A DNA stretch of 63,913 bases, counting the filler, from Collodictyon triciliatum (Eukaryota), in NCBI GenBank assembly GCA_043381765.1. It is 30 parts of 30 records of this genome, joined end to end, with 100 filler letters (N's around TTAATTAATTAA, not from the genome) between each part and the next. Parts side by side here need not be neighbours in the genome. Positions count along the whole stretch, not along the records: positions 59,831 to 61,822 come from JBHJMP010009760.1; 29 more parts are not named here. One strand, given 5' to 3'. This document shows positions 28,476-63,913 of this stretch, piece after piece. The translations under genes were made by a program, and so were the position numbers. Every line of letters begins with the position of its first letter. Within the stretch, counting starts at the first letter, position 1. Under the pieces are notes generated by a model that worked only from the letters and a program-made list of their open reading frames with translations, was not told where the DNA came from and did not search any database.

Positions 28476-29492
28476 TTCTGTTTTTGTGTTCTCTTCTTCG
28501 GTATTCTTTCTTGCGTTGGTGTTTGTGTACTTTCTCACTTATTGCTGTGTCATACGATATATTTGTTACAATTGGTTCCATGAGTTCCATGAGTTCCACT
28601 CAAGAAAGAAGAGAAAAGAACAAATAAAAATCAAAGAGACAAAGCATTTCTGGTCGCGTTTCTGGGAGCCGATCAGAGTGAGCAATCGAACGAAGGCAAG
28701 GTTGAATTACAAAATGAAGTTCGGAAACATAGCCGCACACATGCTTCGCAGAGTATCTCGTATGAATACAGTCTGCGTCTTTTTTTACAACGTCTTGGCA
28801 AATCGGTCTCTGCAAGACGTTGCGTCCATGGCTTCTGCCTTCTTCCTGTCCGAGTATTATGTGTTTGGGACAAGAACAGAAGAGGGGCTGAGGTTTTTAG
28901 ATTCGTTGCAAGTAACGGACGCTTTCTGCGGCTCATCCGTTACCAATACATATATGGAATATATAGTAATATGTTTTTATATGTAAGATTTCCCAATAAT
29001 ACAATTAATTATATCATATTAAATCTCATGAATATTATTAATAATCTATATAAACAATTGTGTGGGGTTACGATGTAACTTTTCTACTCTCCACATGTGG
29101 AGATCCTCATTGTATCCTCTGGCAAAAGCGACATGACCACACATTTTCTTAATGTGGAGAATGTGAATGTCATCGCATTCGCGTCACCACTGCGTCAGAG
29201 CCCTATGAAGCGCCACGCAAACGCCAAGGCGGGCTCCGACACAAACTCCTGGGACGCGAGAGTCACCAAAACCCGACTGAGACAAGGACAAACTACCAAC
29301 CAGAAGACATCGACGCGCTTGTCAAATATCTACACGTAGTCATCTTAAAAAAAAAACAAAAACAAAAAAACAAAAAAACAAAAAAACAAAAANNNNNNNN
29401 NNNNNNNNNNNNNNNNNNNNNNNNNNNNNNNNNNNNTTAATTAATTAANNNNNNNNNNNNNNNNNNNNNNNNNNNNNNNNNNNNNNNNNNNN

Positions 29493-31357
29493 AAGGACCG
29501 AATGGTGAAAATTGGATGGCTTCTGGAAGTGAAGATAAAACAATACGTATTTGGGATGTAGCCACAGGAAACCAAATCAAAACATTAGAAGGGCATATAG
29601 ATGCTGTGAATAGTGTTTGCAGTATCCAAGGGCCGAATGGTGAAAATTGGCTGGCTTCTGGAAGTCTTGATAAAACAGTACGTATTTGGGATGTAGCCAC
29701 AGGAAACCATATCAAAATATTAGGGGGGCATACAATACCTGTCAATAGTGTTTGCAGTATTCAAGGACCGAATGGTGAAAATTGGATGGCTTCTGGAAGT
29801 GAAGATAAAACAATACGTATTTGGGATGTAGCCACAGGAAACCAAATCAAAACATTAGAAGGGCATATAGATGCTGTCAATAGTGTTTGTAGTATTCAAG
29901 GACTGAATGGTGAAGATTGGCTGGCTTCTGGAAGTGTTGATAATACAATACGTATTTGGGATGTAGCCACAGGGAACCAAATCAAAACATTAGAAGGTCA
30001 TACAAGTGTTGTCAATAGTGTTTGCAGTATTCAAGGACCGAATGGTGAAAATTGGTTGGCTTCTGGAAGCAATGATAACAAAATACGTATTTGGGATGTA
30101 GCCACAGGAAACCAAATACGCAGCATGAAAAAATCAGAAGCGACCTACAATGAGAAGAGCCAATTGGTCATGAAGGATAAACCAGAAGTCATCGCAGTAT
30201 TCAATAGTACAAGTGATGCGATGAATATGATTGATACACGCAGAATAATGAACGTGAGAACTGTTCGAATTATCGGCCCAAGAACACTGGAAGCAGCGAA
30301 CACTCATATCAACAGAGCTGAACTGGATGCAATGAACAAGAAACTATTTCTGCAAGAAGGTGCTGCTTCCTTTGATGCGGACTTTGTTGCGTATTGTGAG
30401 CAGGGTAAATTCACCACGTTCCAGGCTCAAATGATGGCTAAATGCTATAAGAATGGATGGAATGTTGAGAAGGACACCGAGAAAGCAGCTGTGTGGTTCG
30501 GAAAAGCTGAAAACTTTGAAAAACTGAAGGAACTCGCACAACAAGGCTCAAAGGAGGCATTCAATGTTTTAAAAGAAATGGCTGAAATTGTAGACGAAGA
30601 ATATGGGGAATACAAATATCCACAGGCTGTGTCTATTGTTGCTGAATGCTATGAGAATGGATGGGGTGTTGAGAGGGACACCGAGAAAGCTATCGAGTGG
30701 CTTGGAAATGCTGAAAACTTTGAAAAACTGAAGCAACTCGCACAGCAAGGCTCAAATGAGGCATTCAATGTCTTGAAAGAAATGGCTGAAATGATATATG
30801 AAGATGGGATATACAAATATCCACAGGCTGTTTCTATTGTTGCTGAATGCTATGAGAATGGATGGGGTGTTGAGAGGGACACCGAGAAAGCTATCGAGTG
30901 GCTTGGAAAAGCTGAAAACTTTGACAAATTGAAGCAACTTGCCCAACAAGGCTCAAAGGAGGCATTCAATGTCTTGAAAGAGATGGCTGAAATTAAGGGA
31001 GATATTCTCGATGGTTGGGGAGACAAAATTGGTGAAAGATACACATATCCACAAGCTGTTTCTATTGTTGCTGAATGCTATGAGAATGGATGGAGTGTTG
31101 AGAAGGACATCACATTATCCTTCAAATGGGAAATATTTGGTGGAAAGACTGAGAACTTTGACAAACTGAAGCAACTCGCACAGCAAGGCTTAAAGGAGGC
31201 ATTCAATTTTTTGGAAGATATGGCCGAAATGAAGGAATATGGAAGATACATATATCCACAGGCTGTTTCTATTGTTGCTGAATGCTATGAGAATGGATGG
31301 GGCGTTGATAAGGACACCGGGAAAGCAGCTGAATGGAGAAAGAAAGCCTCAGCTTAA
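29493..31357 (+). CDS. 3' part of a WD40-repeat + SEL1-like-repeat protein (same WD40 unit as 2111-4119), intronless
   Basis: Open frame from contig start to TAA at 31357. Five 45-aa WD40 units, a linker ending LDAMNKKLFLQEGA, then five CYxNGWxVxxDxxxA-type SEL1-like motifs. Confidence 0.92.
30430..31340 (+). repeat. Tandem ~200-230 bp SEL1-like coding repeats
   Basis: GCTGAATGCTATGAGAATGGATGG recurs at about 30641, 30842, 31070 and 31277, with a diverged first copy near 30436. Confidence 0.9.
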
Positions 31358-54190: not shown

Positions 54191-57084
54191 GTATTGTTAC
54201 TGTCCCATAATCGCGTTTCTTTTTATATGTTTTCATAGTTATGTCTATTTTAAATATATATATAAAAAAAGTGAAATAAAAAAGTTCATTTGTCATTCTG
54301 GCTCTTATACTCATTTATGAAAAATGAACTCACGAAAAGTTCGATATTCAAGATTATTAGTAGTATTATTAGTAGTATTATTAGTAGTATTATTAGTAGT
54401 AGTATTAGTAGTATTATTAGTAGTATTATTAGTAGTATTATTAGTAGTATTATTAGTAGTAGTATTAGTAGTAGTATTAGTAGTAGTATTATTAGTAGTA
54501 TTATTAGTAGTATTATTAGTAGTATTATTAGTAGTATTATTAGTAGTATTATTAGTAGTATTATTAGTAGTATTATTAGNNNNNNNNNNNNNNNNNNNNN
54601 NNNNNNNNNNNNNNNNNNNNNNNTTAATTAATTAANNNNNNNNNNNNNNNNNNNNNNNNNNNNNNNNNNNNNNNNNNNNTTTGTTTGTTTGTTTGTTTGT
54701 TTGTTTGTTTGTTTGTTTGTTTGTTTGTTTGTTTGTTTGTTTGTTTGTTTGTTTGTTTGTTTGTTTGTTTGTTTGTTTGTTTGTTTGTTTGTTTGTTTGT
54801 GCCGTTGATTCGCTTGTCTCTTTACATCCTTATGCCTTCTCTACGCTTCCATGCTCAATCACCATGGAAATGAATGGAAATGATCTTTTCGACACTACTG
54901 ATGTTGCATTGTGAATTATCATTCGCATCTCTGCCCCATCACCCACAACACACGCATTGATTCCTGGCAGACGGCCATCCGCCCACAGCGCCCACATTAT
55001 TTGACATTTCGACAAACCACCCAATGGATGAGCGACACGACCATACAAATCATATTGCAATATAATGCGCAACACTCACATTTCTTATATATACCTTTTG
55101 CTAAGGGCATATACCTTGTCTCGCGTTGTGTATTTATACATCCTTGCAATTCTTCTCCTTTTTCGTACAATATTTTTTTACGAATTCGTATTTTATCTAT
55201 ATTGGGAGCAAGTTGCCCGCGTGCATATATATTGAACAAAGTCCAACAACTATATAGTGTTCAACGGCCTTGTATTGCTCCGCTTCGTGCGCTCGTGGGT
55301 GCTGCGCTTGTGTCTTCCACTCGTGTGCTCCGTGCCTCCGGGCTCTCTGGCGCAACAGACTTTTGCTATGGCTGTGGCTCATTATTCCAACCAACAAAAC
55401 AACCGCCTGATCGCGTCCTATTTTCTTCACATCGCTGTGCTCACGGCCGTCCTCAACGCACTTGCTCTCATTTGCTTCGCCCGTGCCAGTCAATGAAGGC
55501 TGAGCGAGTAAGTGCGAGAGGCTGCGCTGAATTCTCTTTCGTTTTCCGGGTTTATTCTCCGCGCCGTGCGCCCGCTGCGTGACGAATGTCCGTGCCTTTC
55601 ACACAGAGCCCTGGGCTTGACGTTTGTATTCCTTGAGTTATTTCTTTGTTTACTCTGCCCCCCGCCTTCGTGAAAAGCCCCTGCCATTTGCCCGCAGGCT
55701 CAAGTGTCGGCGTGCGCACGGGCGGTGCAAGAAAAGCACACTCGCTGCGGCTCAGAATCACAAGACATTCTCCAAAGCGCAGGGCGCCGCAAACAAAATA
55801 AAAACATACACAGCCTTTGATCCAGGCAGAGACCATAAAACACAGTCTCTCTCGTCTCAGACCCACACAAAAGCTCCGCTGTGAGCAACACAACAGCGTC
55901 GGTAGGTCACTAGTCGGTTCATCCTCGGGTACATCCAAGAAACAAACCCTAGAACAGCCCATACATCGCTTGCTTTTGGAGTCGCTGAGTGCGTGACATA
56001 AAAAAAAACACCGCAAGTTTCACTGCGAGAGAAGCTGCCGCCACAGACGAAGCACAGCGCCCACGCTTCTTAAAGTCCTCCGAGCATTTCGCCAGCGACA
56101 TGGCAGAACACAACAAAATAAAAAAAAGAAACGCCTTGAAGCAAAAAAGTCAGAGTAGCGATCACAAAGGGTTCTACTCTCTCTTTTCATCGAAACAAAC
56201 AAACCACCACATAAAAGAAATAAAAAAACAGTCTTGTGTGGAATATCTGCGTGCGGAGGCAAAAGAACAGGCTGCCCGCCTCCCAACCCTCCACTCCCAC
56301 ACAAACACCCACCCTCCTTGCTCTGGCCGACCCTGCACACGCCGCTCAACAAGAAGCACAGCAAGCACTGACCCTCAAACACTGGGCACACTCTCCCGAC
56401 ACCGATGCAGCCCTCCCCACAGGCAGCGATCCTTTCCACCGCAACCAACGCCATCTCGCTCGCACACTGGCGCACACCCACTGGCTGCAACATTCTCCCC
56501 AACAAAACACATTCTCTATATACTGTCCGCTTATAGATAAAACTGCACCACAACAAAAAAATTATTTTATCCATCTTGGGTGTATGGAGCATTCGTCCTG
56601 TTCGGTCTATTTCCGTGAATAGCGGTATCGTAGCGCTCCTGCTATCTTCACACCATGGCAATCAAAACACACACNNNNNNNNNNNNNNNNNNNNNNNNNN
56701 NNNNNNNNNNNNNNNNNNTTAATTAATTAANNNNNNNNNNNNNNNNNNNNNNNNNNNNNNNNNNNNNNNNNNNNAAGAAAGAAGAAGAAAGAAGAAGAAA
56801 GAAGAAGAAAGAAGAAGAAAGAAGAAGAAAGAAGAAGAAAGAAGAAGAAAGAAGAAGAAAGAAGAAGAAAGAAGAAGAAAGAAGAAGAAAGAAGAAGAAA
56901 GAAGAAGAAAGAAGAAGAAAGAAGAAGAAAGAAGAAGAAAGAAGAGAGAAAGAAAGACAGAAGAAAGAAGGGGAAAGTTGTTGGATTAAATTTGGTGTAA
57001 AGAAAAACTTGGAAATTATATTATCTATCCTCGAAATAAATTATTCCTAAGAATCCGATTGATAGGCAAGGTCTAGTTTAGTAC

Positions 57085-59242
57085 CTGGCACTCAAGTCCA
57101 AGCAACGAATGGATGTGTTTTGTTTGATAAGTTGGATTGGGAAGGGGTTGTTGATAAAAACTTTGAGAACCACTCCATTTTTAAGGCCTACAAGCAAACC
57201 TTCACGGTTTGGCTGCCCACCAATTACCTAAATAAGATTGAAAAACAAAGGAACGTGTTACACGTAGCATAGGAAACTAGTCAAGATGCGTTAGTGAAGC
57301 GGACGAATATATTTTATGTAACGATGTACTTTGATGTAGCGGATTTGTGATTCCATAGTCCATTCTCTTTCGCGTGTTCCTTGGAAATCAAAGAGTTGCA
57401 AAGTCTTTTCCTATGCGATGTGCGACTTTTGTGAGATTATACTATATCTCTATCTTTTTTTTCTATCTTTTTATATTGCGATAGGTAGGAACAAGTATCA
57501 CTTTGTACTAATAGGAAAATGTTTTTTTTTTTTGAATTAAGAGTGTGAATAGAGGCAGTTTCAAAAGCTTTTAATAATCATCAGATTTTCTACCTGGCAA
57601 AGAATAATATGATTGGACGTCACAACAAGGAGATTGCATTCCATCTTTTTCATAATCTTCTCGCGAACGCGGTAATGCAATTCTAGTGAAATTGACTGAA
57701 GGTTATAGCTTTTGAAGAAAAAATAAAAGACAGGAGAAAGTAGAGAAAGTAGAGAAAGTAGAGAAAGTAGAGAAAGTAGAGAAAGTAGAGAAAGTAGAGA
57801 AAGTAGAGAAAGTAGAGAAAGTAGAGAAAGTAGAGAAAGTAGAGAAAGTAGAGAAAGTAGAGAAAGTAGAGAAAGTAGAGAAAGTAGAGAAAGTAGAGAA
57901 AGTGGAGAAAGTGGAGAAAGTGGACAAAGGATAATTTGCTTAATACGAAAGAGACCAACCTCCAGCATCATCATGGAAAAGTTCATAAACGACCACCTTG
58001 TCCGGCATCTGGACTGCAAGTCTGTCTTTGAATATTGCTATTTTCTTCACGTAATCTCGGCATTTAATACGGAGCTAAGGACATACATCTCGGTCAAATA
58101 AGGGTATGATTTATTTTTTTATTCTTTAAAAAAGCAACATGATTTAAATTTTGGCTTTTGGAGATTACCTTTTGTTCGGTGAGTAGATGTTGGACTATTA
58201 CATCGGTCATAAAATCACGATAGGCGTAGCGATCCTGCAAAGGTCCATAATATTACTTCAATGATTTGAATGACTCGAGTGAGAATGTTGTCGACTCAAA
58301 TTAAGCAGAAAGTAAAGGTGAAATAAAAGGGGATGTTTTGTTCATATCTTAGAGAACATATTGTTTTTATTTTGGCAGAGAAAATGAAACTATGATTAGT
58401 GGGCATAAAAACCTGGTAAAGTCCATGGACAGTACTGAAAATAAGTTGGTACATGGATATCGAGCCGTCATTGCATCCAATCGCCTATTTCCCAGTGCAG
58501 TTGGTCGTATAAGAAAAGTAGATGTGCATTTCTTGAAACGAAATGAATCATTAAGAATATATGTTCAGGAACTCGAGGCGGAGATTCAACGAGGGAAGCG
58601 TTGAGGTCCTTCCATTGAATTGGGCGTTGCCATTCTACTTACGACATAGTTCTGCTTCGGCTTCGGCTTACAAGCCCAGACCCAATCTTCGCGCTCACCA
58701 ATGTGGGTTAATTTGACCCCTTCTTTTGTCCATAAAGATACCTGTATATTTCGCTCAGTCAGGAACAAAGTCTTCCAATCAAATACTTCTCAGTCAAAAA
58801 AATAATCAAAATTAACTTCAGTCCTCGTTACTGAAGAGAAAGAAGAGATAAAAATCATGATGGAATGATTAACTCCAAGTACAATATAAAAGGTGAGCAA
58901 GGGTCTATCTGGCGCACATGGAATGGGATTAATCACCTTTCGGTCCGACCCACCGATGCATAGATATTCTCCATTTACAAAGTAGCCGATGGAGCACGGG
59001 TCGAAGCCGAGTTCGCGGTCTTTGCCTACCTGACGCCCATTGAGCTGATAGAAGGAGAGCTTCTGGTCCCAATCACCAACAGCCAAAAGGTCGTACGGCT
59101 CGTCTCTCGACGGATTCCATGCGATGCACCATACAGGTGCGTTTCGCTCAATGCGGACGCGTTCGTCTCCGTTTTTGTCGCGGATACTCACATTCCCGTT
59201 GTAGTGCCCAAGAGCGAGGAACTGTCCATCATTTGTCCAACT
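57085..59242 (-). CDS. IFT122: Internal part of intraflagellar transport protein 122
   Basis: [117 protein letters not shown]. Confidence 0.97.
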
Positions 59243-59261
59243 ATTAAATGAGTTGCATCAG

Positions 59262-59730
59262 AAGAGGAAACAAGAGGAAACAAGAGGAAACAAGAGGAAA
59301 CAAGAGGAAACAAGAGGAAACAAGAGGAAACAAGAGAAAACAAGAGAAAACAAGAGAAAACAAGAGAAAACAAGAGAAAACAAGAGAAAACAAGAGAAAA
59401 CAAGAGAAAACAAGAGAAAACGAGAGAAAAAAGGAAAACAAGAGAAAACAAGAGGAAACAAGAGAAAACAAGAGGAAACAAGAGAAAACAAGAGGAAACA
59501 AGAGAAAACAAGAGAAAACAAGAGGAAACAAGAGAAAACAAGAGAAAACAAGAGAAAACGAGAGGAAACAAGAGGAAACAAGAGGAAACAAGAGAAAACA
59601 AGAGAAAACGAGAGAAAACGAGAGAAAACGAGAGAAAACAAGAGAAAACAAGAGAAAACAAGAGAAAACAAGAGAAAACAAGAGAAAACAAGAGAAAACA
59701 AGAGAAAACAAGAGAAAACAAGAGAAAACA
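59262..59730. repeat. 10-bp minisatellite (AAACAAGAG(A/G))n, probably intronic in IFT122; representative of the simple repeats that end most contigs
   Basis: Directly visible tandem repeat. Others include (AAT)n at 4220, (ACAGAA)n at 14570, (TTCC)n at 46684 and (AGAGAAAGT)n at 57734. Confidence 0.95.
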
Positions 59731-59896
59731 NNNNNNNNNNNNNNNNNNNNNNNNNNNNNNNNNNNNNNNNNNNNTTAATTAATTAANNNNNNNNNNNNNN
59801 NNNNNNNNNNNNNNNNNNNNNNNNNNNNNNATGAACCAGAACTTGGTACAAGTTACAGACAATCAACAAATCCATACTTGAATCAACTTGTAAGAT

Positions 59897-59931
59897 TTAA
59901 ATAATTATTTTTTTATAAAACAATTATTTAA
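59897..59931. terminator. AT-rich hairpin between the MCP stop and a convergent stop codon
   Basis: TTAAATAATT (59897-59906) pairs with AATTATTTAA (59922-59931), then one mismatch, TTTT/AAAA and a 5-nt loop. Confidence 0.5.
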
Positions 59932-61664
59932 TAAAGAACTTGGGCGTTGTCCTTTCCAACGTCGAGAATACGTGTGTGCTCGATGATGACCCAGCAGGTG
60001 TAGTTATCAATAGGTGATACACTTGAAACAGCTGCAGATGCAGCAGCAGCATCGGCAGCGGTAACAGATTTACCCTCTTTACAAGATGCACCAAACTGAA
60101 GGCCGACCTGGACGATACCTGAATTTGATGATGCGTTATATCCTGACAACTCAAATTCGTCTGAGTAATCTGATCGGGTCATAGTCCAACCAAGCGCAAA
60201 ATATGTCGGAGTTTTCCAATAAATCTCCTCACAAACAAGTGGATTATTATTTCCGTTTGCAATAGCTCCAGTTGCCATAGCAGCATTAACAAGCATATTA
60301 TTATAAACTGCTTTATTACTTGCATAAAACGCACCAGCACCCGATTTTTGTACAGAATATACACCATTGGTTATACTTGGAGCTGATTCAACAACTGGGA
60401 AATTTACCTGGCCAAGCATTTCTGCGGATGTGTTATATCCCAATGCTTTCATTAAATAATTAAGAGCTTCTGGCTGTTGACACAATGCTTGTCCATGAAT
60501 CCCACTTGTTAAAAGGCCATTTGAAGTTGAAATAGTTTGAGCTGCTGATGGATATGTTAAATATCCTGGATTTTGAAAAAGTATAGGTACAGATGGCATA
60601 ACTTTACCATTTACAGTCAGTCTTGCTTGTGATAAACCCTCGATCGCATGCATTCTATCCGTTCCAAGATAATTAAGATTACCCTGCTCTGTATTTCGTG
60701 TAAAAATAAGATAAATACTGTTAATGTTTGAGTACTGAACCGAAATATTCTGAGTAACCCATCCATTTTGTCCTCGTGGAATTGGGAATTGGGTCATAAA
60801 ATAAGTTTCAATTGGAATCTGTAAATTATTATTTATTAAATATTGGGAAAGTGCATTATTATAACTGGGTTCAGTTTGAATATAATTAATATTCATGTGG
60901 ATGTTTGAAAGTGTATAACTCAATGTAGTTGCAGTAGAAGCAAGAAATGAATCATAAGTATAATTTGCATTTTGCGCACAAAATAACCTACCGGTCGTGA
61001 AGCACTCAGCCGCTGGTGACATCCAAATACGAATTTCCAATGAATTGGGACCTAGTAAATAAGCAGGCAATAAAGTTTTTATATTCATTAATCCAAGATA
61101 TCTAAGTGGAAAACCGATTTGTATAATATTACTTGATGTACCAGCCGCACCAACAAGCAACTGTTTTGATTTATCTAAAATAGACTGACCTAGTCCCATT
61201 CCACCACTCATAAGATTCACCCAATTCTGATTATTACACCAATTGTGCTTAAACGACTCGAGGTATGAATAGTTGTCGATTCTTTCCAATTCACTTCCAT
61301 TTAAGTAGACGGCAATGCGATAAATAAAACTTTCGTAACTTTCACAAGGCGCCAAAATTGGTATAGTTCTTGCGGCATCATTACCAGCAGTTGAAAAATT
61401 GGTGTTTTTTAAATTTCCAATAGCTGCAATTACATTTGCATCAAGTCCCTTAACTTGCAAATCAGCTATGATATGAGCACTGTCCATTTGAATGCTCCAT
61501 TCATTGTCGATTGGAACCCTAAATACAATTTGAGGACCAGATGAAAAATTTGCAGTTTGCTCGGTTCCGTTTGACGGAAGAACTTGTCTTTGTTGTTTTT
61601 CAAGAATAGTTTTCTTTTTTGACGATACATTTCTAAACTGTAGCTCCTCCGGTAGTGAATCCAT
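59928..61664 (-). CDS. Putative double-jelly-roll major capsid protein of a Polinton-like virus/virophage-related element
   Basis: Intronless 578-aa beta-rich ORF: PSNG..FSSGPQIVFRVP; SFIYRIAVYLNGSELERIDNY; LLPAYLLG..LEIRIWMS; YTLSNIHMNINYIQ; LQIPIETY; ISVQYSNINSIYLIF; LTVNGK..P; C-terminal HTRILDV. This layout is typical of PLV MCPs. Confidence 0.8.
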   Translation of the reverse strand: MDSLPEELQFRNVSSKKKTILEKQQRQVLPSNGTEQTANFSSGPQIVFRVPIDNEWSIQMDSAHIIADLQVKGLDANVIAAIGNLKNTNFSTAGNDAARTIPILAPCESYESFIYRIAVYLNGSELERIDNYSYLESFKHNWCNNQNWVNLMSGGMGLGQSILDKSKQLLVGAAGTSSNIIQIGFPLRYLGLMNIKTLLPAYLLGPNSLEIRIWMSPAAECFTTGRLFCAQNANYTYDSFLASTATTLSYTLSNIHMNINYIQTEPSYNNALSQYLINNNLQIPIETYFMTQFPIPRGQNGWVTQNISVQYSNINSIYLIFTRNTEQGNLNYLGTDRMHAIEGLSQARLTVNGKVMPSVPILFQNPGYLTYPSAAQTISTSNGLLTSGIHGQALCQQPEALNYLMKALGYNTSAEMLGQVNFPVVESAPSITNGVYSVQKSGAGAFYASNKAVYNNMLVNAAMATGAIANGNNNPLVCEEIYWKTPTYFALGWTMTRSDYSDEFELSGYNASSNSGIVQVGLQFGASCKEGKSVTAADAAAASAAVSSVSPIDNYTCWVIIEHTRILDVGKDNAQVLY

Positions 61665-62879
61665 ATTCTAAAAAAGAAAATAATTTTCTAACTAGTAACC
61701 AATTTTATTTCTGATATTGTCGTCGTATGATTTTATGACTTTTCCCAGGGATTCGTTTCGTTGTGCAGCTCCGCGAATTACAGGCGCGTATTTATTTACT
61801 TGGTCAACACCTTTTTTAAATTNNNNNNNNNNNNNNNNNNNNNNNNNNNNNNNNNNNNNNNNNNNNTTAATTAATTAANNNNNNNNNNNNNNNNNNNNNN
61901 NNNNNNNNNNNNNNNNNNNNNNTTCAGGATGTGATTGCCAGCTTTTGGCAAGGAACTCGGCGGAGCGGGCAATGAAAGACATTTCTAGTGACGAAGACTC
62001 TTTGGTTACGAGTTGCCCGTTCGCAAACACCTTTTCCAGCTGCGTCTCTTGCCTCACACACAAGCGAAAACCATCACAACACGATCCGGCCGGTCTTGCT
62101 GATTATTGCAAACTCGCAGCGATGAAGAAAAAGGTATCTACTTCTGGAATTTATTTTCTTGTTTAGTTTACATCCATTCGCAAGACAAAGCTTCATAACC
62201 AAATCTTTATTATGCGTTAGAATCCGCTCGGTTCCTGCACATCATCCCCTCGCAGAATTCCTTACCACACGCGCAGCTCGGCTGGCCAAGGCTCACATCA
62301 ACAGGGCTGAATCCAAATGCTGATGCGGGATTGTAAGACTCTGTGTAGCCGCGGAATCTTCCAAAGTACGGGTCGGAGGGGAACGAATGCGATGACTCGA
62401 AATGAGAAGAGTGGAACTGGTTCGTCTGACCTGTTTGTGCGCCGCACAAGTCGTTGTCTCTGTGGGTATCATCGGGTAATTGTGGGAAAATCAATTGAAC
62501 GAGGGTTTTTACAGGCGACATCAGGCTCTTGAAATCACTCTGTTTGTACGTATTGGTTAGTTATTTCATATATATATATATAATGAACGAAGGGCACATA
62601 CCTTTTCCTTTCCTTATGAAAAAAAAAACAGACGCGAAAAAAACCAAAAACTAAATAATAATCAGCAAAAAATAATAAAAATAAAATAATCTATTGGTAT
62701 AGAGTATGGTTTGTACCTCTTTCAAGGTAAATTCGAAGAAATATATCACGGCCAGGAAGAAAAAACACTAATTGATAAGGTTCGTTCACCTTTCGCCGAG
62801 ACATCTACGACCACCACGGACTCACTCCGTTCTCGATTCATTCGCTATTGACAAAAGCACTCAGCGCACCCAAATATCC

Positions 62880-63913
62880 TCCATGCCTTAGGAGCAGTGG
62901 GGAGAAACACTGGGCATCACCCACACCCCGCTCACTGCAAGCTGAACACAAGCACGAACCCTGCAAGTCCTTCCAAATCACCGCTCTCTAATGCATAATA
63001 TCACCAATAGGGAGCTATGGATAGGCACACACGCGGCAAAAGCTGGCAAAGTCTCCCAACAATCCACACTTTGCAGTAACAGTGATGAATCCATTGAGCA
63101 CACATTTGTGCAATGTCCCTTCGCTCAAAACCTGCGCGAAACAGCCGGTGAGATTCTTCGACTGACAATCAAGACGGCTGCGGCTGTTGTTCCAATCCAG
63201 GCGATATTTGGGCCTCTGCAACAGCTGCGTCCAGATGCAAAAACATTCTGGGCAGTGACGCGAGGCCATTTGTTATGGACTATGCGGATAACACGCATAT
63301 ACTCACACAAAACAAGACTCAACAATCAGCCACTCATTCCAGATAATGGCTGAATGACATCATACAAATCTCTGTCCTCAATGACTCCCTTCGCCACCAG
63401 CGCGTTCTCTATTTCTCAGACCCTGTGAGAAGATACATGTGGAAAGAAGCTGAGAAAGATATTAAACCTCGCCTTGCATCTCTCATACAAGCACAAGACC
63501 CAGGCTAAATGCCAAAGCGCATGATGCAATTCCTGATAACCGACTACTTCTCCGCCACCCAGCCGACAAGTAGCGTCCACGCAAACGATGGCTAGCGAAC
63601 CAAAGCCAGCATCTCTACCATCCTGCGCAAAATTGAAAATAAGAATAAAAAGAAAGAGGCTGAAGGAGCTGAAAGACATCTGCCGCAACTTCATAACTAA
63701 AGAATCAAAATTAAAAGCTGGAAGCAAGCCCGTATACCTCAGTTACCCCCGAAACACCGCGCCCTACTGCTCAATATCTCCAACAGAGAGCTGTGGATAG
63801 GTGCGTGTGTAGCCCATGCAGCAACGACCTCTCCAGAATGCACCATGTGCCATAGTGGAGATGACTCTATCGAACACACATTTGTGAAGTGCTCTCTTGC
63901 TCAAAAAGTGACA
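62880..63913 (+). mobile_element. Two decayed non-LTR retrotransposon ORF2 C-terminal (zf-RVT, CCHC) fragments
   Basis: NRELWIG..STLCSNSDESIEHTFVQCPFAQ..LLWTMRITR (62991-63353) and a second NRELWIG..CTMCHSGDDSIEHTFVKCSLAQ (63782-63913), with stops and frameshifts. Confidence 0.8.

Follow-up and report, generated by a model that had tools for sequence, protein, structure and literature searches.

A probable Polinton-like virus major capsid protein gene on a two-kilobase piece of the Collodictyon triciliatum assembly

An intact reading frame for what looks like a viral major capsid protein is found in the assembly of the eukaryote Collodictyon triciliatum (GCA_043381765.1), and it raises the question of what kind of virus the gene belongs to, and whether that virus is part of the sequenced genome or was sequenced along with it. 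The window, i.e. the whole stretch of 63,913 nucleotides analysed here, consists of 30 pieces of about 2 kb chained via 29 artificial 100-base linkers, each made up of 44 N, the string TTAATTAATTAA and another 44 N. The linker string occurs 29 times against 0.07 expected by chance, and a literature search for it gave nothing on assembly linkers among the matches listed. The gene lies on a 1992-bp piece (59831..61822), which is joined to the preceding piece by one such linker (59731..59830) and to the following piece by another (61823..61922), none of the three being assigned to a strand. Because the pieces are joined by artificial linkers, those rich in introns and microsatellites are not physical neighbours of the capsid gene; the initial annotation, in which the frame was set in an intron-dense window, was right about the frame but not about its surroundings. 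The pseudo-chromosome strings together unplaced contigs, and gene neighbourhood across its linkers is meaningless, which is a lesson for its annotation; non-host DNA can therefore sit in it. The remaining pieces of the window look host-like, with exons of IFT122 and of a phosphodiesterase and the tail of a retroelement. Compared with the protein atlas, the IFT122 exon fell among clusters of mixed taxonomy that gave no indication of the host taxon. Rfam gave no matches at gathering scores over the whole window. Tandem Repeats Finder, run over 56775-63913, reported three arrays, all of them within the adjoining piece and none in 59831-61822, in line with the earlier remark that the capsid-bearing contig is free of microsatellites.

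The frame was recovered at exactly the coordinates first given for it (59928..61664, minus strand), with an ATG start, a TAA stop and 578 encoded residues. The corresponding stop-to-stop frame exceeds it by just one codon, and since the initial methionine is invariant in 22/22 aligned homologues the start is considered sound, while a chance origin of the frame is excluded by homologues at E = 0. There are nine stop-to-stop frames of at least 200 codons in the window. Two other long ones, at 2743-4167 (474 codons) and 29441-31357 (638 codons), are both WD40-repeat frames and may be incomplete, as each runs into a linker, and hence reaches a piece end, at one end. The capsid frame is the only complete long frame, as had been claimed, but other long open frames exist beside it. 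Tested as bacterial contaminants, the WD40 frames matched six loci in prokaryote genomes at no more than 41% identity and within the WD40 repeats only. The capsid gene is under purifying selection, with a dN/dS of 0.175 against the closest metagenome locus (L001) and of 0.085 against another (L003). The recent activity that had been read from the intact frame carries no weight if the DNA is that of a co-sequenced free virus.

The capsid protein matched no family at E ≤ 10 in either Pfam or PHROGs, and its matches to the PDB by sequence were at chance level (E 1.7 for the single protein, 0.84 for a profile of 22 sequences), so that its placement among capsid proteins rests on structure prediction and on its neighbours. 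The AlphaFold2 model (pLDDT 75.7, pTM 0.80) has two beta-rich halves, at residues ~20-265 and 281-578, and is a double jelly roll, with two jelly-roll beta-barrels in one chain. In VIA the highest score was obtained with the capsid protein of PBCV-1 (Z 19.7, 357 residues aligned, model residues 3-578), followed by those of Faustovirus (18.9), ASFV (p72, 18.8), vaccinia (D13, 18.2), Sputnik (17.2) and mavirus (16.2) and by adenovirus hexon (13.2) and PRD1 (13.1); such scores cannot separate Polinton-like virus (PLV) capsids from those of giant viruses or virophages, as Z differs by just 2-3. Apart from that of D13, these alignments extend over model residues ~3-578, at Z 12-19.7, and the top matches, at Z 16-20, cover residues ~15-578. 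Foldseek returned 242 matches at E ≤ 1e-3 in the PDB (best 7e-16), led by the capsids of iridovirus, mavirus, PBCV-1 and Sputnik, and 106 in BFVD (best 4e-21), among them a protein of Tetraselmis viridis virus S1 at 5.7e-11. A fold other than the double jelly roll, which would have spoken against the first reading, was thus not what the prediction gave, and the best matches of both methods are viral capsids. Insertions rich in Ala, Asn and Gly had been placed in the second jelly roll, and loops rich in indels are indeed present there (361-390, 421-475 and 525-550), but they also occur in the first half (71-100 and 221-250), and the composition is clearly biased solely at 525-555 (29% Ala, 19% Ser).

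On sequence grounds, the protein is assigned to a small unnamed family. A word-indexed search gave 22 homologues of 35-82% identity, 21 of which cover at least 99% of the query, and 42 clusters at E ≤ 1e-3 came out of a profile search through 1.84 billion representatives. No homologue looks cellular; the relatives adjoin viral genes, on contigs of at most 25 kb. Scans of the IMG/VR viral contigs with patterns from the capsid alignment, from the capsid of one related locus (L007) and from the ATPase of another (L005) gave 53, 4 and 15 pattern stretches, of which none was confirmed, a result that rests on few peptide patterns and is not proof of absence. That these scans gave no relative is odd for an abundant virus group.

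The piece itself is purely viral, a stretch of a virus genome free of host sequence; it contains the one whole gene and the tails of two neighbouring genes, in an order that matches the metagenome relatives, and its bases 4-1898 align to L001 with 79% identity (blastn). Upstream, 61692..61820 (minus strand) is the 3' end (42 codons and stop) of a gene for a small basic protein rich in Lys, Gly and Ala, cut by the piece end. This tail aligns with the C-termini of ORFs of 114-145 residues directly upstream of the capsid gene in nine related loci, differs from L012 and L013 in one of 42 residues, and belongs to a protein family with no Pfam or PHROG match. On the other side, 59833..59904 (plus strand) is the 3' end (23 codons and stop) of a convergently oriented gene whose charged product is rich in Lys and Glu. 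This end is likewise cut by the piece end, and its C-terminal NPYLNQLVR motif recurs in the convergent ORFs of 131-170 residues that follow the capsid gene in L001-L004 and L006. In the closest relatives (L005 and L012) the genes are ordered ATPase, small basic protein, capsid, and in L001-L004 and L006 the capsid gene precedes the convergent one for the Lys/Glu-rich protein. The very short intergenic gaps noted at first are borne out: the capsid gene is separated from its neighbours by 27 nt on the upstream side and 23 nt on the downstream side.

The wider gene context comes entirely from relatives whose capsids have 37-86% identity, as the piece itself carries no ATPase, integrase, terminal repeat or penton gene. 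A Pox_A32 packaging ATPase (Pfam) lies beside the capsid gene in 5 of 13 related loci (E 3e-13 in L005, 9.5e-14 in L007, 9.4e-14 in L008, 2.5e-11 in L010 and 9.1e-10 in L012), the one in L005 at 2499-3221. Six loci extend for over 800 bp upstream of the capsid gene, and these five are among them; the present piece is too short to include an ATPase gene. L005 also encodes a DUF5906 / primase-helicase protein (3-2210). L007 has 15,603 bases with 69-nt terminal inverted repeats (1-69 and 15486-15554, 91% complementary) and a sub-threshold match to an rve integrase (E 1e-4, 22.8 bits against a cutoff of 32.6). Neither a maturation protease nor a polymerase B was found by Pfam among its 10 ORFs, i.e. 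all those of at least 90 residues except the capsid gene, where the protease result concerns a single near-complete relative and a divergent protease could escape detection. Its large proteins had no match in the PDB by sequence, and in PHROGs just endonuclease VII and a short stretch of a tail protein. Two families were considered as penton candidates. The better one, of 291-330 residues, gave an AlphaFold2 model with a pLDDT of 44.1 (four sequences, two of them identical); the second, of 274-399 residues with two members, adjoins the ATPase and includes a low-complexity stretch, and neither member has a Pfam or PHROG match.

The gene content of the relatives is of PLV type and not that of virophages, Mavericks or giant viruses. 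Very probably, the product of the frame is the major capsid protein of a small dsDNA virus of the Polinton-like kind, from a lineage otherwise seen only in unnamed metagenome contigs of freshwater type. The initial reading, a major capsid gene of a PLV or virophage-related element, is supported by the double jelly roll and by the A32 ATPases, primase-helicase, weak rve match and inverted repeats of the relatives. PLVs, which we take to include Tetraselmis viridis virus S1 and other TSV-type viruses as well as Gezel-14T (PgVV), resemble the present family in the double-jelly-roll capsid, the A32-like ATPase that adjoins it in the relatives, a genome of ~15-25 kb with terminal inverted repeats, a replication gene of primase-helicase type, the weak rve match, the freshwater metagenome habitat, and in that no maturation protease or protein-primed polymerase was detected. 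In Bellas & Sommaruga 2026 (bioRxiv 10.64898/2026.06.19.733378), where PLVs are placed in Aquintoviricetes and related groups, the capsid module that defines them is made up of a major capsid protein, an A32-like ATPase and a minor (penton) capsid protein. The first two are found in the relatives, in which no penton gene was recognised. PLV genomes are given as 14-40 kb of dsDNA in PMC12220804, and the relatives are likewise small, with L007 at 15.6 kb and the longest contigs at 13-25 kb. The family differs from PLVs in the conserved gene for the small basic protein between ATPase and capsid in its closest relatives, and in having, with the tools used here, no detectable sequence likeness to named PLV capsids, for which ~230 profile clusters are published. 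The proposal that the virus is probably undescribed stands in the sense that no relative bears a name, and in that sense only. As to Maverick/Polinton elements and animal adintoviruses, the double-jelly-roll capsid (BFVD hit 5, at 8.1e-16, is a capsid-fold protein of an adintovirus), the A32 ATPase, the rve-type integrase and the terminal inverted repeats are common to both, while neither a protein-primed polymerase B nor an adenain-type protease was found on L007, L005 carries DUF5906 / primase-helicase instead, and the present relatives come from water metagenomes and not from animal genomes.

Whether such a virus is integrated in the assembled genome is less clear, and we lean only weakly towards a virus sequenced alongside the organism, or one belonging to a co-sequenced microbe, over an integrated copy. 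The endogenous state proposed at first finds no support on the piece, which shows no host junction and has artificial flanks. It is still quite conceivable that a PLV, possibly an active provirus, is integrated in the sequenced eukaryote and was left unplaced only because repeats or several copies broke the assembly. The weak rve-type match and the terminal inverted repeats of L007 are in favour of this, as is the wide integration of PLVs in protist genomes reported in PMC10120064, PMC12220804 and 10.64898/2026.06.19.733378. The other pieces of the window, with their IFT122 and phosphodiesterase exons and retroelement tail, look like host DNA, and the composition of the capsid piece resembles theirs, although this test has low power: the piece ranks 14 of 30 in trinucleotide distance, which does not discriminate a foreign origin, and its CpG ratio of 0.82 falls inside the range of the other pieces (0.50-1.39). 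Against integration, the piece begins and ends within viral genes and no junction between host and virus is found on its 1992 bp, which concerns the piece only and does not show that the virus is unintegrated; the neighbours in the window are joined to it artificially; and nothing like the related virus loci is seen in the rest of the window, since in a tblastx comparison of the window with 13 such loci only 6 of 320 HSPs fell outside the piece, all at no more than 36 bits and in low-complexity sequence. Moreover, among the part of the sequencing runs that could be searched, no organism-labelled run contains the sequence. Parts of it occur in 20 runs from 13 studies, every one an environmental metagenome or metatranscriptome (freshwater, lake water, wetland, subsurface, aquatic). 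The share of the words of the piece in those runs is 0.06-0.28, with none reaching half. Contigs from four of the runs match the piece in a patchy manner at 85-100% identity, with a few identical stretches (98-176 bases), and the parts of the piece left uncovered in these runs carry no meaning. In one RNA run (X19), three segments have 85-95% identity to the piece and continue into sequence that does not match it, and this indicates a relative in the RNA library and not transcription of the capsid gene.

A true virophage capsid gene, of the Sputnik/mavirus class and dependent on a giant virus, is very unlikely. Mavirus and Sputnik do give strong fold matches (Foldseek 4.7e-14 and 2.7e-13, VIA Z 16.2 and 17.2) that comprise both barrels over the whole chain (6g45, 3j26), the proteins are of similar length and the genomes of a similar size class, Qinghai Lake and Sissi virophage capsids are among the BFVD matches, and in an Atlas cluster at rank 17, which is a lead only, 29% of the members carry Sputnik capsid families. 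The fold scores are, however, lower than those of giant-virus capsids, and as far as Pfam families go, neither the present protein (at E ≤ 10) nor any of 33 family members matches the virophage capsid families Sputnik_MCP_1st or MCP_V20_C. In PMC9952930, a virophage-type capsid, an ATPase and a cysteine protease are required of a virophage, and no protease family, including that of cysteine proteases, was seen among the 10 scanned ORFs of L007. With no virophage capsid match in Pfam and no maturation protease on a near-complete relative, the term Polinton-like virus fits better than virophage.

Even less probable is that the capsid gene comes from a giant virus (Nucleocytoviricota) sequenced along with the organism, despite the fact that giant-virus capsids (PBCV-1 Vp54, Faustovirus, ASFV p72, iridovirus) are the best structural matches, at Z 17.5-19.7 over 336-367 aligned residues. 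The nearest Atlas clusters are labelled Nucleocytoviricota, with Capsid_N or Capsid_NCLDV on 11-12% of members; weak Capsid_N matches occur in 4 of 33 distant family members (best E 8e-5), and one of these four (P0062) reaches 22.7 bits for Capsid_N against a cutoff of 24. The protein of the window itself has no match to Capsid_N or Capsid_NCLDV at E ≤ 10, and the context is that of a small virus: contigs with family members have at most 24,938 bases, and L007, which looks near-complete at 15.6 kb with its terminal inverted repeats, has the gene content of a small virus. According to 10.64898/2026.06.19.733378, giant viruses have small relatives of PLV size, and a likeness to giant-virus capsids therefore need not mean a giant genome.

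That the frame is a capsid-derived cellular gene now serving the host can practically be dismissed, for although it sits in a eukaryote assembly with an intact frame under purifying selection, all the context found is viral, the gene is intronless, lies 23-27 nt from its neighbours in an order common to virus contigs, and has its relatives in environmental metagenomes.

Solved double-jelly-roll capsid proteins are trimers of hexagonal appearance that tile an icosahedral shell. By analogy, the protein of this Polinton-like virus would form such trimers, the conserved beta-barrel cores building the shell and the variable, indel-rich loops (71-100, 221-250, 361-390, 421-475 and 525-550) presumably pointing outward, while the A32-type ATPase encoded nearby in the relatives would package a linear genome that is ~15-25 kb long and has terminal inverted repeats. 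Of such a genome, the 1992-bp piece would then be a fragment, with the tail of the basic protein, the capsid gene and the convergent Lys/Glu-rich tail.

The capsid piece is an orphan fragment of 2 kb and could just as well have been carried along with the sample. Even so, finding a capsid gene from an unnamed lineage in a eukaryote assembly is a possible clue to the host. We regard it as rather doubtful that the piece stems from a PLV integrated in, or persistently infecting, the sequenced eukaryote; if this were true, a host would for the first time be known for a freshwater capsid lineage otherwise seen in unnamed metagenome contigs only.

The capsid ORF occupies 59928..61664 on the minus strand and encodes 578 aa from ATG to TAA, exactly as in the initial annotation with respect to both coordinates and intactness. 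A stop codon is found one codon upstream of the ATG, all 22 aligned homologues share the start Met, and only 27 and 23 nt separate the gene from the flanking gene tails, in line with the very short gaps that had been described. The gene is a genuine, intact Polinton-like virus (PLV) capsid gene.

The surroundings of the ORF in the window (59150-63913) are bounded by N runs flanking the string TTAATTAATTAA, of which the window contains 29 copies where chance predicts 0.07. Each linker consists of 100 bases (44 N, TTAATTAATTAA and 44 N; for instance 2011-2110 and 59731-59830). All-frame stop linkers are used for chaining unplaced contigs into a pseudo-chromosome. Splitting at the linkers gives 30 pieces sorted by decreasing length from 2016 to 1991 bp, with the exception of one of 2956 bp at 56775-59730, and the capsid gene stands on its own piece of 1992 bp (59831-61822). 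Since the pieces are joined by linkers, the intron- and microsatellite-rich sequence around the capsid piece is not physically linked to the gene. The intron-dense surroundings that had been taken as its context belong to other pieces, and gene-neighbourhood readings across the linkers are invalid.

The absence of repeats from the capsid piece was borne out, as the three tandem arrays in 56775-63913 (56775-56965, 57734-57929 and 59262-59730) all lie in the preceding piece; they have 9- and 10-base units in 19-47 copies with 95-98% matches, and give long spurious ORFs in several frames. The description of the capsid gene as the only long ORF holds in part: two stop-free WD40-repeat frames exist on the plus strand, 2743-4167 (474 codons) and 29441-31357 (638 codons), but each meets a linker at one end (2743-4119 and 29495-31357 within their pieces). 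One of them also has pentapeptide repeats and the other Sel1 repeats, which is unusual next to intron-split host exons, and their closest prokaryote relatives show at most 41% identity, over the WD40 part. Host-type exons include the first beta-propeller of IFT122 at 58790-59191 (-) (E 6.6e-27) and a cyclic nucleotide phosphodiesterase at 17062-17850 (+) (E 7.8e-20), which makes the assembled organism a eukaryote with cilia or flagella. On the last piece, the zinc-binding tail of a reverse transcriptase at 62991-63353 (+) (zf-RVT, E 5.7e-6) and a second, diverged zf-RVT copy at the window end (about 63770-63913, +) are remains of non-LTR retroelements.

A metagenome scan reduced 178 pattern matches to 13 related loci (L001-L013) holding homologues of the capsid gene. 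By blastn, bases 4-1898 of the capsid piece match L001 at 79% identity, and shorter stretches match L012 (84.5%) and L013 (93%). In L013, a short contig, an ORF at 353-775 (+) starts capsid-like (68% identity over 38 residues) and stops after 140 aa, which may reflect a truncation, a chimera or a fault in assembly. On the upstream side, the capsid gene of the piece is preceded by the final 42 codons of a gene for a small basic Lys/Gly/Ala-rich protein, and one of these 42 residues differs from L012 and L013; the full-length protein (114-145 aa) stands directly upstream of the capsid gene in nine loci. On the downstream side stand the terminal 23 codons of a convergent gene, coding for a Lys/Glu-rich protein with a conserved C-terminal NPYLNQLVR motif; a convergent gene of this kind comes after the capsid gene of L001-L004 and L006 as well. 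As these tails are matched in relatives, the piece begins and ends within viral genes; it is a fragment of a virus genome, and the 1992 bp contain no host DNA. The Nei-Gojobori dN/dS of the capsid gene is 0.175 versus L001 and 0.085 versus L003, with synonymous sites saturated against three of the seven loci compared; the family is under purifying selection.

None of the other pieces in the window resembles the related virus loci, and composition does not set the capsid piece apart. Some part of it is present in 20 of the 23 sequencing runs listed (best share of words 0.28). These 20, which come from 13 studies, are all metagenomes or metatranscriptomes of environmental samples (freshwater, lake water, wetland, subsurface, aquatic), and no organism-labelled run appears. 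Contigs from four of the runs are many and short, with 85-100% identity to the piece, frequent breaks and a few identical stretches of 98-176 bases, as would be seen with close relatives that form a diverse natural population. A co-sequenced freshwater virus, either free or carried by a protist, agrees with this, and the run data would be no different for a copy integrated in the genome of a freshwater host. We lean slightly towards the co-sequenced virus, since each end of the piece interrupts a conserved gene and no junction is present.

With Pfam and PHROGs no family matched the capsid protein at E≤10, and the PDB searched by sequence gave chance-level matches only. When 5.8 billion proteins were searched through a word index, 22 homologues were obtained at E≤1e-3 (436-632 aa, 35-82% identity, at least 99% of the query covered in 21). 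The contigs that encode them are at most 24,938 bases long; none of the homologues carries a Pfam domain, and four bear only the name "hypothetical protein". The profile built from the 22 was run against 1.84 billion representatives and retrieved 42 clusters at E≤1e-3, of which 22 reached E≤1e-30. The family is thus small and unnamed. Weak Capsid_N matches were found in 4 of 33 distant members (best E 8e-5), and one of these four, P0062, scored 22.7 bits with a cutoff of 24. The nearest Atlas clusters are viral, which is a lead only.

The AlphaFold2 model based on the 22-sequence alignment (pLDDT 75.7, pTM 0.80) has two beta-rich halves. Foldseek gave 242 PDB matches at E≤1e-3, led by the capsid proteins of Singapore grouper iridovirus (7.4e-16), mavirus (4.7e-14), PBCV-1, Sputnik, ASFV and Faustovirus. 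Structural re-alignment (VIA) placed PBCV-1 first (Z 19.7, 357 residues aligned, model 3-578), followed by Faustovirus (18.9), ASFV p72 (18.8), vaccinia D13 (18.2), Sputnik (17.2), mavirus (16.2), adenovirus hexon (13.2) and PRD1 (13.1). Among 106 BFVD matches at E≤1e-3, those with names are capsid proteins, or proteins with a capsid fold, from giant viruses, an adintovirus, adomaviruses, virophages and Tetraselmis viridis virus S1 (5.7e-11). The predicted double jelly roll across both halves, which the initial annotation had proposed, is well supported by the model, with viral capsid proteins leading the matches.

Lower conservation and indel clusters occur at residues 71-100, 221-250, 361-390, 421-475 and 525-550 of the 22-sequence alignment, and columns missing from the window protein cluster after residues 79, 174, 429 and 432. 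Residues 525-555 contain 29% Ala and 19% Ser, and the low-confidence model segments 413-437 and 498-512 overlap the variable loops in part. By analogy with solved capsids we take these to be outward-facing tower loops. Insertions had been placed in the second jelly roll; the loops of that barrel are variable, but the first barrel has such loops too.

An A32-type packaging ATPase is found by Pfam in 5 of the 13 loci (L005, L007, L008, L010 and L012; E 9.4e-14 to 9.1e-10). These five are all but one of the six loci in which the flank upstream of the capsid gene exceeds 800 bp. In L005 and L012, the closest relatives with enough flank, the ATPase gene comes first on the upstream side, followed by the gene for the small basic protein and then by the capsid gene. 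In L011, the sixth locus, the ORF that precedes the capsid gene (266 aa, 80-880, +) is possibly a fusion: it has a SAM-dependent methyltransferase domain (E 1.7e-15), and blastp clustering puts it with the small basic proteins. L005 (74% capsid identity) encodes a 736-aa DUF5906/primase-helicase protein. L007 (37% capsid identity, 15,603 bases) has 69-nt inverted repeats with 91% complementarity (1-69 and 15486-15554). Its match to an rve integrase stays below threshold, and one of its proteins, of 1262 aa, contains an endonuclease VII domain; Pfam found neither polymerase B nor a protease in the 10 ORFs of at least 90 aa that it has besides the capsid gene. The 399-aa ORF adjoining the ATPase in L007 contains a 9-base tandem repeat (7463-7633), which translates into low-complexity Ser/Ala/Pro sequence. 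In L009 the capsid gene is immediately followed by an HNH/NUMOD4/AP2-domain gene of homing-endonuclease type (1391-1882, +), a sign of mobile endonucleases within the virus lineage. A penton gene was not recognised; the best candidate is a conserved beta-rich family of 291-330 aa downstream of the capsid gene, with a model pLDDT of only 44.1.

PLVs are defined by a capsid module in which a double-jelly-roll capsid protein is combined with an A32-like ATPase and a minor capsid protein (10.64898/2026.06.19.733378); for virophages, a virophage-type capsid and a cysteine protease are required in addition (PMC9952930). The predicted double jelly roll and the ATPase of the related loci bear out the proposed PLV-type capsid gene. 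Virophage capsid proteins are among the structural matches, and Pfam showed neither a virophage-type capsid in the family nor a cysteine protease in the L007 ORFs; giant viruses, also among the matches, are excluded on genome size. "Polinton-like virus" is therefore the best supported reading.

Published surveys count more than 70,000 PLV capsid genes and 230 capsid profile clusters (10.64898/2026.06.19.733378), so that another PLV capsid is not surprising. The exact window sequence is absent from 15 billion collected proteins, and pattern-based scans of IMG/VR found no relatives. The capsid gene adds a further member to the PLVs, a kind of virus that is already known.
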